64,000 nucleotides of DNA. It comes from a plasmid. Both the position numbers and the translations under genes were made by a program. The stretch's first letter is position 1. Each line of letters starts with the position of its first letter. Where the stretch lies: the NCBI RefSeq assembly GCF_056712565.1, contig NZ_JBWXXM010000002.1; one strand, 5' to 3'. The notes beneath the pieces were generated by a model. That model was not told where the DNA came from. It made no database searches and saw nothing but the letters and a program-made list of their open reading frames with translations. Below, piece after piece: positions 12,539 to 17,868 of the stretch.

Positions 12539-13780
12539 GTGAATCTACAATCCGGACAAAACATACCGCTTCAGCAATCTGCGATCAGGCTGAATCTTCA
12601 GTACCCTGCCAAATCCGGCTTTAAAGGCGAACCCGATACCTGCCTCTTCCTGCTTAATGCTCAGGGAAAGGTAACCGGCGATTCTGACTTTATCTTTTAT
12701 AATAATCTGTCTTCTCCTGAAGGGGCAGTAAAGCTCGTTACCGGTTCTCAGCAGTCCAGCATTGAGATAGCACTGGATCGTGTTCCGGCGAACGTCAGTA
12801 AGATTGCGATCACCGTTGTCATTGATGGTGAAGATACTATCAGTGGGCTCAGTTTATTGAGCATTCAGGCTCCTGGTATCGCTGATTTTCAGGCTGAGAC
12901 TCAGGGCCGCAGTGAGAAAGCAATCATCCTGGGTGAAGTATATCGGCACAATGGCGCCTGGAAGCTTCGTGCGCTCGGGCAGGGTTTCAACGGTGGTCTT
13001 GAGCCTCTGGCCATTAGCTTTGGCGTTGATGTCGCACAGCCAGCTCCGCAGCCAGCAAAGCCTGCTCGTATCAGTCTGGAAAAGAAACTTGAAACCAGAT
13101 CTCCGCGCCTCGTAAGCCTCGCTAAAAAAGCCTCGGTCAGTCTCACTAAAAATAAACTGGACACCCTTGAGGCAGCGGTTGCATTTGTACTTGACGCATC
13201 CGGCTCAATGAGTGGCCAGTTCAGTAAGGGCAACGTTCAGTCTGTGCTGGACCGCATCGCCGTTCTTGCCGCCCAGTTCGACGACGACGGTGAAATGGAT
13301 GTCTGGGGATTTGGAGAGAAGCACAAGAAGTATCCAAACGTCACACTGGACAACCTGGACACATATATTCAGTCCATTCGCGGGTCTGGAAAGCGTTCAG
13401 CCTGGGAGAACCTGCCGGGACTTGGTGGGACAAACAATGAGCCCCCTGTGATGGAAGAAATTGTCGACTACTTTAAGGACTCGAAAATCCCGGTATATGT
13501 TGTATTTATTACCGATGGCGGGATCAGCAAGACCCGGGCGATTAAAGATGCAATCCGGCGTTCTGCCAACTACCCCATCTTCTGGAAGTTTGTCGGCCTG
13601 GGTGGTTCAAGCTACGGTATCCTCAAAAATCTGGATGACTTTACTGACCGCCGGGTTGATAACACCCACTTCTTTGCCATGGATGATTTCGGTTCGATCA
13701 GCGATGAAAAGTTATATGATAATTTACTGGAAGAATTCAGACCGTGGATCGATGAAACAAAAAGGTTAGGCATCCTGTAA
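12539..13780 (+). CDS. terF: TerF: TerD-domain / vWA-domain fusion protein
   Basis: ORF 413 aa starting at GTG 12539 with GGAGAG RBS; N-terminal TerD-like region, C-terminal vWA-like region (VLDASGSM). Confidence 0.8.
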
Positions 13781-13870
13781 TACGCACAGTTTTCGCATGG
13801 TTAAAGGAGCTCTACAGCAGCTTAATACTGTAGAGCCTTTGTTCACTGGAAATCGTACAGGGAGGAGCAT

Positions 13871-14002
13871 ATGGACCGCATCAAGTACCTGAAATGGATA
13901 GCTGAAGAATCACCAACTGATGATGAAATCGACAACTACGATAGTATCATTAGTCGGGGCGCAGAAAGGGCCGAGAAGGTTCAGTTGTCTTTAAGACGTT
14001 AA
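13871..14002 (+). CDS. Small ORF (43 aa) with strong Shine-Dalgarno
   Basis: ATG 13871 preceded by GGGAGGAG; MDRIKYLKWIAEESPTDDEIDNYDSIISRGAERAEKVQLSLRR; ends 14 bp before the IS66 insertion. Confidence 0.3.
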   Translation: MDRIKYLKWIAEESPTDDEIDNYDSIISRGAERAEKVQLSLRR

Positions 14003-14108
14003 TATACGGGAGTTTAAATGTTCGTAAGCGTAAACTGACCGCCGTATGTAGCCATCAGACGAGAATTGGTAACTTAGACGCCCATCTGATATAGACGGAC
14101 ATCTAAGT

Positions 14109-14534
14109 ATGGAATTACAGGACTGGCGAAAAGAACCTCGTAAAAACTATTCGAATGAATTCAAACTTCGTATGGTGGAACTGGCATCACAACCTGGAGC
14201 TTGTGTTGCACAGATTGCACGTGAAAATGGCGTCAATGATAATGTTATTTTCAAATGGCTCAGGCTCTGGCAGAACGAAGGGCGTGTTTCGCGGCGTCTT
14301 CCGGTAACGACCTCTTCTGACACTGGCGTTGAATTATTACCTGTAGAAATAACGCCGGATGAGCAGAAAGAACCTGTGGCGGCCATTGCGCCGTCTTTAT
14401 CCACTTCCACTCAGACCAGAGTCAGTGCCAGTTCCTGCAAGGTGGAATTCCGTCACGGTAACATGACGCTGGAAAATCCATCGCCAGAGCTGCTCACGGT
14501 GTTGATCCGTGAACTGACCGGGAGGGGAAGATGA
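14109..14534 (+). CDS. IS66-family accessory protein (orf1)
   Basis: ORF 141 aa; position and sequence typical of IS66 orf1. Confidence 0.85.
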   Translation: MELQDWRKEPRKNYSNEFKLRMVELASQPGACVAQIARENGVNDNVIFKWLRLWQNEGRVSRRLPVTTSSDTGVELLPVEITPDEQKEPVAAIAPSLSTSTQTRVSASSCKVEFRHGNMTLENPSPELLTVLIRELTGRGR

Positions 14535-14881
14535 TCTCACTCCCATCAGGTACCCGTATCTGGCTCGTTGCCGGCGTTACCGATATGCGTAAATCCTTCA
14601 ACGGACTGGGAGAACAGGTACAACATGTGCTGAATGATAATCCCTTCTCCGGTCACCTGTTTATCTTCCGTGGCCGACGGGGTGACACCGTCAAAATTCT
14701 TTGGGCTGATGCTGATGGTCTGTGCCTGTTCACCAAACGCCTGGAGGAAGGCCAGTTTATCTGGCCTGCGGTACGTGACGGCAAGGTATCCATTACCCGT
14801 TCGCAACTGGCAATGCTCCTCGATAAGCTGGACTGGCGTCAGCCAAAAACATCCAGCCGTAACTCACTGACAATGTTGTAA
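14531..14881 (+). CDS. IS66-family orf2 protein
   Basis: ORF 116 aa overlapping orf1 stop; typical IS66 TnpB. Confidence 0.85.
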   Translation: MISLPSGTRIWLVAGVTDMRKSFNGLGEQVQHVLNDNPFSGHLFIFRGRRGDTVKILWADADGLCLFTKRLEEGQFIWPAVRDGKVSITRSQLAMLLDKLDWRQPKTSSRNSLTML

Positions 14882-14911
14882 AAAACTCCTGACCGCATTA
14901 TAAAAACGGTC

Positions 14912-16525
14912 ATGAGTCAGAAATACCTCATTCGCATCGCAGAGCTGGAAAGGTTGCTCTCTGAGCAGGCTGAAGCCCTCCGTCAGAAAGACCAGCAACT
15001 GAGTCTGGTTGAAGAGACGGAAGCCTTCCTGCGCTCTGCACTGACACGTGCCGAAGAAAAGATCGAAGAAGATGAACGGGAAATAGAACATCTGCGGGCT
15101 CAGATAGAAAAACTGCGCCGGATGCTGTTCGGTACCCGTTCTGAAAAACTGCGTCGTGAAGTTGAACTGGCTGAGGCTCTGCTGAAACAACGTGAACAGG
15201 ACAGCGATCGTTACAGTGGGCGGGAAGACGATCCTCAGGTTCCCCGCCAGTTGCGACAGTCGCGCCATCGTCGTCCGTTACCGGCACACCTTCCCCGTGA
15301 AATACACCGCCTGGAGCCAGAAGAAAGCTGTTGCCCGGAGTGTGGCGGTGAGCTGGATTATCTGGGGGAAGTCAGCGCTGAACAGCTGGAACTGGTGAGC
15401 AGTGCCCTGAAAGTGATCCGCACAGAACGGGTAAAAAAAGCCTGTACAAAATGTGACTGTATTGTTGAAGCACCGGCGCCGTCCCGCCCGATAGAGCGTG
15501 GTATCGCGGGCCCCGGATTACTTGCCCGCGTGTTAACGGGAAAATACTGCGAACATCTGCCACTGTATCGTCAGAGTGAAATCTTTGCCCGCCAGGGTGT
15601 CGAACTGAGCCGGGCCTTACTCTCCAACTGGGTTGACGCGTGCTGCCAGTTAATGACACCGGTGAATGATGCCCTGTACCGTTATGTAATGAACACCCGC
15701 AAGGTTCACACTGATGACACACCGGTAAAGGTACTGGCACCGGGTCAGAAAAAGGCGAAAACAGGGCGTATCTGGACGTATGTCCGGGATGATCGCAATG
15801 TGGGTTCGTCATCTCCTCCAGCGGTCTGGTTCGCGTACTCGCCGAACCGGCAGGGGAAACACCCGGAGCAACACCTCCGCCCCTTCCGGGGTATCCTGCA
15901 GGCGGATGCGTTCACAGGTTACGACAGGTTGTTCAGTGCAGAACGTGAAGGTGGTGCACTGACAGAAGTTGCGTGCTGGGCCCATGCCCGGCGAAAAATC
16001 CACGATGTATACATCAGCAGCAAAAGTGCGACGGCAGAAGAAGCCCTGAAGCGAATCAGTGAACTGTACGCCATCGAGGATGAAATACGGGGATTACCGG
16101 AGTCAGAGCGTCTTGCCGTCAGGCAGCAGCGAAGCAAAGTGTTACTGACGTCGCTGCATGAATGGATGGTGGAGAAGAATGGTACGCTGTCGAAAAAATC
16201 CAGACTGGGCGAAGCGTTCAGCTATGTACTGAATCAGTGGGATGCCCTCTGTTATTACAGTGATGACGGTCTGGCGGAGGCGGATAATAATGCTGCGGAA
16301 AGAGCGCTTCGTGCAGTCTGTCTCGGAAAGAAAAACTTTATGTTCTTTGGCAGCGATCACGGCGGCGAGCGTGGAGCACTGTTGTACGGGCTGATCGGCA
16401 CCTGCCGTCTGAACGGTATCGATCCGGAAGCGTATCTGCGCCATATCCTGAGCGTACTGCCGGAATGGCCTTCCAACCGAGTTGATGAACTCCTGCCATG
16501 GAACGTAGTACTCACCAATAAATAA
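14912..16525 (+). CDS. IS66-family transposase
   Basis: ORF 537 aa; leucine-zipper N-terminus, CPECGG zinc motif, conserved DNNAAERALR-type motif. Confidence 0.9.
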   Translation: MSQKYLIRIAELERLLSEQAEALRQKDQQLSLVEETEAFLRSALTRAEEKIEEDEREIEHLRAQIEKLRRMLFGTRSEKLRREVELAEALLKQREQDSDRYSGREDDPQVPRQLRQSRHRRPLPAHLPREIHRLEPEESCCPECGGELDYLGEVSAEQLELVSSALKVIRTERVKKACTKCDCIVEAPAPSRPIERGIAGPGLLARVLTGKYCEHLPLYRQSEIFARQGVELSRALLSNWVDACCQLMTPVNDALYRYVMNTRKVHTDDTPVKVLAPGQKKAKTGRIWTYVRDDRNVGSSSPPAVWFAYSPNRQGKHPEQHLRPFRGILQADAFTGYDRLFSAEREGGALTEVACWAHARRKIHDVYISSKSATAEEALKRISELYAIEDEIRGLPESERLAVRQQRSKVLLTSLHEWMVEKNGTLSKKSRLGEAFSYVLNQWDALCYYSDDGLAEADNNAAERALRAVCLGKKNFMFFGSDHGGERGALLYGLIGTCRLNGIDPEAYLRHILSVLPEWPSNRVDELLPWNVVLTNK

Positions 16526-16882
16526 GCGTCAATACGGTGCTCCGTTGACGCTTACAAATGTTCGCAGAAATCAAAGATAATTATTCGTTAGGTGGATAAA
16601 GAAAGGTTGCCATTACCAGCTTTCGACGAGTCGAAAATAAAAACCTTATTTATAGTGACAGGGAGTATGAGCTGACGCTTGCCAATGGAACAATAATTAA
16701 AAATGTACTTAGAAAAGAAGAGTGGGAACTGTTAGAAAGCAATTCAATTAAGGTTATATTATAACGAAAATATATTTACAGTTTTGGATAGGTTTCAAAC
16801 GAGTCCGGACATTTGTACCTGAAGTATCTGACATTACAGTTAAGTGACGATTATGCCAGCACGTCTGTTGCTGGCAGCTTAG

Positions 16883-17164
16883 CTATCGGTCTAAAAGCTG
16901 ATCCATTAATAATTCTTCGTAAAGCCCAGAGGTATCGGGCTTTATTACAATATCCGTTATTTCGAAGCGTTCAAGTACAAATTGCAGATATTCCGGAGTA
17001 ACGTAGTAGGGATCAGGTTCAGCCAGATTAGTATAGAGTGGGTCTTCTGCTGCATTAATGTCATAATCAATGCACATATGAAACCACTGCAAAGGTGGAT
17101 CCCAGCCTAACATCACCTGAACAATTCCCTGATTGCTTTTCACCTCATACCAGTGCTGGCTCAT
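16883..17164 (-). CDS. Hypothetical protein (93 aa)
   Basis: ORF only; AT-rich region; no recognisable motif. Confidence 0.3.
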   Translation of the reverse strand: MSQHWYEVKSNQGIVQVMLGWDPPLQWFHMCIDYDINAAEDPLYTNLAEPDPYYVTPEYLQFVLERFEITDIVIKPDTSGLYEELLMDQLLDR

Positions 17165-17213
17165 ACTTAGTCCTTAAGAAAATTTGTCATCGGAAAATAA
17201 CACGAAGCCTGCA

Positions 17214-17405
17214 TCATCGAGGCGCATAACCTTCTTCCCTTAACGCCTGTTGTAATTTATCAACTGCGCTTTTCATTACCCAGGCTTCTTCGTCACTCAC
17301 AGCACAACCACGTAGATCGCTCCAGCTCAGACGTTTAACAAATTGAGCAAGGGCCATAGTTTCGTTCTCATCAAGCCGCAAACTCAGTGTCTCAATACCT
17401 TCCAC
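17214..17405 (-). CDS. Hypothetical small protein (63 aa)
   Basis: ORF only. Confidence 0.25.
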   Translation of the reverse strand: MEGIETLSLRLDENETMALAQFVKRLSWSDLRGCAVSDEEAWVMKSAVDKLQQALREEGYAPR

Positions 17406-17496
17406 AATCTAACCTCCCTTATAATGAAAAATGGCGCTTTACTTCTGACCAGATGCCGAAGCCTTGAATGCAGCCGGAACTGTCGTTGTTTCTACT

Positions 17497-17868
17497 TTAC
17501 AGAAATGGAATTAAAAAGTGGTGATGCTGGGCACGTTTCTTTTCCAGCCGGGGTTTAAGCCAGAGCTGAAACTCATTCAACTTCTCAGCAGCCAAAACCG
17601 CTTCAACGGGGAAAACTTTATATTTACCCTGTTGCTGAGGTTCACCCAGCCATCGCCTGATGGCTCCGTCAGTCCATAAACGAGTCTCTTTTAGCCTAGT
17701 TACAGTGACCCATTTTCTGGACCATTCATCAAATTGTCGCTGGCGATCCCGATAACGTTGTTCTTCCTGCTGCCGAAGCCACTCGCGATCAACAGCAAAT
17801 TTTCGGTATCCAACAAAGAGCCCTTGTACTTTGGCCATGTCATATTCCGGTTGCTTAGAGTTACTCAT
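17497..17868 (-). CDS. Hypothetical protein (123 aa)
   Basis: ORF only, ATG at 17866-17868. Confidence 0.35.
   Translation of the reverse strand: MSNSKQPEYDMAKVQGLFVGYRKFAVDREWLRQQEEQRYRDRQRQFDEWSRKWVTVTRLKETRLWTDGAIRRWLGEPQQQGKYKVFPVEAVLAAEKLNEFQLWLKPRLEKKRAQHHHFLIPFL

Follow-up and report, generated by a model that had tools for sequence, protein, structure and literature searches.

An IS66-family element identified as ISEc23 in the spacer downstream of terF on an IncHI2A plasmid

Relation to the IS66 family and to ISEc23

The closest described systems are the IS679 and IS66 prototype elements and the ISEc23 copies of Escherichia coli. In the IS66 family TnpC is the catalytic DDE enzyme, while the helix-turn-helix protein TnpA and TnpB are accessory. 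Both accessory proteins are reportedly required for transposition of IS679. The TnpB of this family (Orf2 type, PF05717) is unrelated to the TnpB nuclease of IS605. The IS679 and IS66 prototypes carry tnpA, tnpB and tnpC with an ATGA coupling, GTAAGCG termini and 8-bp duplications. ISEc23 shares this arrangement, although at the sequence level the prototypes are different members of the family. Under the ISfinder rule, an isoform has at least 95% nucleotide identity to the reference element.

We analysed a 64,000-nucleotide stretch of a plasmid (NCBI RefSeq assembly GCF_056712565.1, contig NZ_JBWXXM010000002.1), called the window below, whose context types as IncHI2A, MOBH and conjugative. An element of 2,532 bp, its ends checked by a script, lies at 14024-16555 on the + strand and contains the following features.

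14024-14047, + strand: left terminal inverted repeat, GTAAGCGTAAACTGACCGCCGTAT (inverted-repeat pair I1)
14109-14534, + strand: tnpA, encoding a helix-turn-helix accessory protein of 141 aa (Pfam HTH_Tnp_1, E = 5e-12)
14531-14881, + strand: tnpB, encoding an IS66 Orf2-type accessory protein of 116 aa (Pfam PF05717, TnpB_IS66, E = 1e-36)
14912-16525, + strand: tnpC, encoding a DDE transposase of 537 aa (Pfam PF13007, PF13005, PF03050 and PF13817)
16532-16555, - strand: right terminal inverted repeat, whose reverse complement is GTAAGCGTCAACGGAGCACCGTAT (inverted-repeat pair I1)

The three genes are consecutive on one strand. The tnpA stop and the tnpB start overlap in the sequence ATGA, and a 30-nt spacer separates tnpB from tnpC. 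TnpA scored 83 bits against the NCBIfam model for IS66-like TnpA (NF047595, cut-off 74), TnpB 120.9 bits against NF033819 (cut-off 50) and TnpC 452 bits against NF033517 (cut-off 180). The Pfam domains of TnpC are LZ_Tnp_IS66, zf-IS66, DDE_Tnp_IS66 and DDE_Tnp_IS66_C, and the match to DDE_Tnp_IS66 (PF03050) covers 283 of 284 profile positions with E = 9e-98. TnpC thus combines the DDE domain and leucine zipper of the family with zinc-finger motifs (CPEC at residue 141 and CTKC at 178) and a CWAH motif at residue 355. The inverted repeats, which start with GTAAGCGT, are imperfect and agree at 19 of 24 positions between left and right; the 5'-GTAAGCG termini, like the imperfection of the repeats, are those of IS66-family ends. 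The element therefore shows every structural feature of the family that sequence can test, including an 8-bp target-site duplication, AAATGTTC, on both sides. An earlier note on this DNA had called it an intact IS66-family element, and both parts of that description hold: all three proteins exceed the curated Pfam and NCBIfam cut-offs, the termini and the duplication agree with the family, and the three ORFs are intact in a copy that is 100% identical to other full-length copies.

By its sequence, the element is ISEc23. A megablast search of 5,426 complete E. coli genomes found full-length matches in 2,488 of them, roughly 3,300 full-length copies in all; the number of matching places per genome had a median of 3 and reached 47. 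The best matches were 100% identical over 2,532 bp, and RefSeq labels them 'IS66-like element ISEc23 family transposase' with tnpA and tnpB. The name rests on these RefSeq/PGAP labels of identical copies, which serve as a proxy for the ISfinder reference; by that proxy, identity to labelled full-length copies, including that of E. coli 042, is 100% or 99.96%. The copy of E. coli 20AR1039 is 100% identical to the window copy, and the copy of E. coli 042 has the same length (2,532 bp), ends and three genes and differs by one synonymous base at 14800. The ISEc23 proteins WP_000422741.1, WP_000624722.1 and WP_000080195.1 are the same as those of the window copy, which differs from catalogued copies by its insertion site only. 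Six copies taken from different replicons and sites were 0-2 bases away from the window copy, and every one of them has its own perfect 8-bp duplication at identical element boundaries; these near-identities and shared boundaries identify the window element as an intact ISEc23. The one recurrent difference, T versus C at 14800, falls in an Arg codon of tnpB and is synonymous. The window copy evidently belongs to a currently proliferating population of near-identical copies. It is complete, and presumably active, as its intact ORFs, the near-identity of many dispersed copies and the fresh duplication suggest.

Movement of IS66-family elements, whether by cut-and-paste or through a copied intermediate, is poorly characterised (PMC12898284). 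The likely course of the insertion can be outlined from what is known of DDE transposases and of this family. TnpC, aided by TnpA and TnpB, would bind the GTAAGCG... termini and these would be joined to staggered cuts made 8 bp apart at AAATGTTC, after which gap repair would leave the 8-bp direct repeat.

Several smaller features of the element were also considered. Two antisense ORFs within it (146 aa and 134 aa) had no Pfam match and were treated as spurious. A hairpin just 5' of the tnpA start was set aside, as the folded leader (14024-14130) was no stabler than shuffled sequences (z = -0.68). At the right end there is a 10-bp palindrome, TAAGCGTCAA (16523-16532) and TTGACGCTTA (16545-16554) around a 12-nt loop, which overlaps the tnpC stop codon and the right inverted repeat; with 16515-16563 folded as RNA it gives -17 kcal/mol. 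It was rejected as a conserved structure, since 8 of its 10 positions are kept in the related element ISKox1 without compensatory change.

Target duplication and empty site

The element is bounded by two copies of the octamer AAATGTTC, which a script confirmed to be identical.

14016-14023: left copy of the target-site duplication, AAATGTTC, present as a single copy in the empty site of related plasmids
16556-16563: right copy of the target-site duplication, AAATGTTC, identical to the left octamer

Both octamers lie flush with the ends of the element, which begins GTAAGCGT... at 14024 and ends ...ACGCTTAC at 16555. Read directly from the sequence of 13700-16800, the left junction is ...GGGAGTTT AAATGTTC / GTAAGCGTAAACTGACC... 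and the right junction is ...CCGTTGACGCTTAC / AAATGTTC GCAGAAATC...; the 32-mer across the left junction is ACGGGAGTTTAAATGTTCGTAAGCGTAAACTG. Given the base composition of the region, two octamers at a fixed pair of positions would be expected to match by chance about 1.6e-5 times. The perfect duplication claimed in the earlier note is thus borne out, and the span that it gave, 14016-16563, correctly takes in the element together with both copies of the octamer.

To reconstruct the empty site, we removed the element and one octamer and joined 13400-14023 to 16564-17200. The resulting 1,261 bp were 100% identical over their whole length to many large plasmids of Escherichia, Salmonella, Enterobacter and Klebsiella. 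At least 80% of this query was covered by 642 PLSDB records and 258 E. coli records, examples being pAPEC-O1-R (NC_009838.1) and p14EC029b, the latter typed as IncHI2A, MOBH and conjugative. Related ter loci lacking the element are therefore found in many IncHI2 plasmids, and AAATGTTC is single-copy there. A query for the occupied site (13400-17200) found ISEc23 at the same position in none of 72,556 plasmid records in PLSDB and none of 20,395 records in the complete E. coli set. A second copy of ISEc23 was not found in the 64-kb window.

With the empty site identical in relatives, no other searched record occupied and a single copy in the window, the insertion is shown to be a simple transposition, a single cut into AAATGTTC without later rearrangement, which took place recently or at any rate is confined to the sampled lineage. 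The earlier note had proposed both. Its claim of a simple insertion agrees with the identity of the rebuilt site to many IncHI2 plasmids, and its 'probably recent' agrees with the 0-1 nucleotide differences from other copies and with the lack of occupied sites among the records searched. The source replicon itself is not part of the public sets searched and close unsampled relatives may share the insertion, so that 'recent' is a relative term.

Taken as a whole, the locus almost certainly holds a complete copy of ISEc23 that transposed into an AT-rich spacer 3' of terF on an IncHI2(A) conjugative plasmid, where it is most likely neutral and marks one plasmid lineage. Neither the type of event nor the sequence is new: a catalogued IS has made a solo insertion of the textbook kind. 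It leaves the ter genes untouched, without apparent effect on them, and reveals no new biology. It can serve as a clean marker by which the lineage of one IncHI2 plasmid variant is tracked. It is also an added mobile patch of homology, which could mediate later recombination with the many enterobacterial copies of ISEc23.

Neighbouring genes and other readings of the insertion

The genes next to the element on its left side are as follows.

12539-13780, + strand: terF (TerD and vWA domains; Pfam PF02342 and PF10138), the last gene of the ter cluster, in agreement with the annotation of the identical region of pAPEC-O1-R
13871-14002, + strand: an ORF of 43 aa, probably a 151-aa ORF cut short after its 5' end, as judged by its start and first 16 residues against WP_000374058.1

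ISEc23 starts 243 nt beyond the end of the terF stop codon at 13780, in a spacer with 39% G+C. Inspection of the sequence by eye showed a hairpin followed by a T-rich tail 3' of terF (about 13807-13846), which the automated terminator scan did not list. On the other side of the element, a minus-strand ORF of 93 aa (16883-17164) has its 3' end 327 nt past the right end of ISEc23. The element is thus flanked by convergent ORFs, the 43-aa ORF on the + strand and the 93-aa ORF on the minus strand, and no annotated gene is interrupted. Since the neighbours are convergent, no gene is cut off from its promoter. An Rfam scan of 13000-17600 at E <= 1 returned two sub-threshold chance matches only. Judged by its position in a spacer where no gene is interrupted, the insertion is most likely selectively neutral.

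It might instead have been selected for changed expression of its neighbours, by an outward promoter, by a polar effect, or by read-through from tnpC antisense to the minus-strand ORFs. Transcription of tnpC does run toward the 3' ends of those ORFs (16883-17164 and beyond), and a terminator scan found no clear or canonical terminator at the right end of ISEc23. However, a consensus scan found no outward-facing promoter at the ends of the element, with the count of promoter-like sites in the region close to that expected from shuffled sequence. The convergent neighbours leave no gene parted from its promoter, and the same insertion was seen in no other plasmid searched in PLSDB and the complete E. 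coli set. We consider selection of this kind improbable, with a slight chance at most, and retain neutrality as the preferred reading.

A multicopy IS could also have been put in the wrong place by the assembler. ISEc23 is multicopy in many hosts (median 3 and up to 47 places), and such repeats are typical sources of misassembly. A misjoin, however, would not produce an exact 8-bp repeat of a target that relatives have only once, nor would it keep both flanks exactly collinear with the empty site. Because a misplaced repeat yields no such duplication, an artefact is very unlikely and its probability close to negligible. The chance that ISEc23 instead forms one end of a larger composite element, or of a unit mobilised by IS elements, for instance one moving the ter cluster, is also next to nil: an ISEc23-like element just after terF does end the homology, without a duplication, in chromosomal ter islands, so that IS66-family elements can bound ter modules, but the window holds a single copy with a perfect 8-bp duplication around it, and many IncHI2 plasmids lacking the IS have its two flanks directly joined and with 100% identity, an empty-site match that effectively refutes such a unit.

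Two other IS-type sets were observed in the window (25130-25834 and 36827-38796 for the two sets). One is an ORF of 234 aa, as long as the IS26 transposase. The second, a pair of minus-strand ORFs (390 aa and 266 aa), resembles in size and arrangement the istA/istB genes annotated for the IS21-family element ISEc62 on the related plasmid pCFSAN061772_02.

Alternative segments and other events downstream of terF

The earlier note had placed the element just after the ter locus and 14 bp downstream of a 43-aa ORF with a strong ribosome binding site. The position is right and can be refined: the stop codon of the ORF ends at 14002, 13 nt before the duplicated target and 21 nt before the first base of ISEc23. 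The binding site is real as well, with the Shine-Dalgarno sequence GGGAGGAG at 13860-13867 and the ATG, 3 nt further on, at 13871. As a gene, however, the ORF most likely represents what truncation has left of the 5' part of a 151-aa ORF. It is annotated elsewhere as the hypothetical protein WP_000374059.1. The 151-aa ORF, WP_000374058.1, is intact in R478-type IncHI2 plasmids (L014, 3091-3546) and shares with the 43-aa ORF both the ribosome binding site and the start codon. The first 16 residues of the two proteins are nearly identical and they diverge thereafter. No Pfam or NCBIfam family was matched by the 43-aa, 151-aa or 93-aa neighbouring ORFs.

At the nucleotide level, homology between the window lineage and the R478 type stops at 13918/13919 and resumes at 17112. 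Between these points lie alternative segments 3' of terF, of 653 bp in the window lineage (13919-14023 plus 16564-17111) and of 548 bp in the R478 type (L014, 3137-3684). In plasmids of Citrobacter freundii (L002, 3019-6866) the two variant segments occur in tandem, with about 740 bp encoding a RelB/DinJ-like antitoxin between them. This tandem arrangement may be ancestral. The break in homology at 13918/13919, together with the presence of both segments in tandem in C. freundii, makes the window lineage look like a deletion derivative. The 43-aa ORF is probably a chimeric, truncated gene remnant and not a genuine small gene, and the 'hypothetical protein' annotated at this place in IncHI2 plasmids should probably be read in that way.

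Other IS66-family elements have been found in the same zone. The C. freundii plasmids carry ISKox1 (L002, 3538-6063), also of the IS66 family, 3' of terF and in the same orientation as that gene, with an 8-bp duplication CATTTTTG. Over most of its length ISKox1 has about 79% identity to ISEc23, and it lies in a different variant segment at another target; its insertion is an event independent of that in the window. In E. coli chromosomes, ISEc23-like elements 90-98% identical to ISEc23 lie at the edges of ter islands, co-oriented with and immediately after terF (L003, 2767-5298; L005, 3729-6239; L004, 6370-6951). Unlike the window copy, which is 243 nt away, they begin no more than about 70 bp after the terF stop. 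They have no duplication, the sequence being ATTAAAAG on one side versus CGGCATAC on the other, and the DNA to their right is unrelated, with genes for an adhesin regulator and a ShlB-type transporter. Since the duplication is absent and the right flank unrelated, these chromosomal elements mark a rearrangement boundary and not a simple insertion.

Counting the window ISEc23, the Citrobacter ISKox1 and the chromosomal ISEc23-like elements, there are three independent IS66-family insertions co-oriented with terF, in addition to an ISApl1-mcr-1 unit. The zone of about 250 bp 3' of terF is thus a recurrent place of breakpoints and insertions. That it is a preferred landing site of IS66-family elements, undescribed so far and with, for example, an AT-rich target having an (A)AATG-like core, is a more specific proposal that we regard as unlikely. 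Seven ISEc23 duplications were compiled from the window and six other loci (L007-L012): AAATGTTC, GGAAATAT, AAATGGCT, CGTATATT, AGAATTGT, GAATGGCT and GAAAAAGG. The set is AT-rich, with (A)AATG in several of its members, but seven sequences are far too few to call a preference. The clustering could equally reflect tolerance of a non-essential, AT-rich spacer and the abundance of IS66-family elements in these hosts.

The spacer used by ISEc23 is also an integration site for colistin resistance (mcr-1). In the Salmonella plasmid pS1-27 (L013, NZ_MW025964.1) an ISApl1-mcr-1.1-pap2 unit occupies 619-3500 and its boundary corresponds to position 13996 of the window; in some IncHI2A plasmids such a unit meets the backbone 28 bp upstream of the AAATGTTC target.
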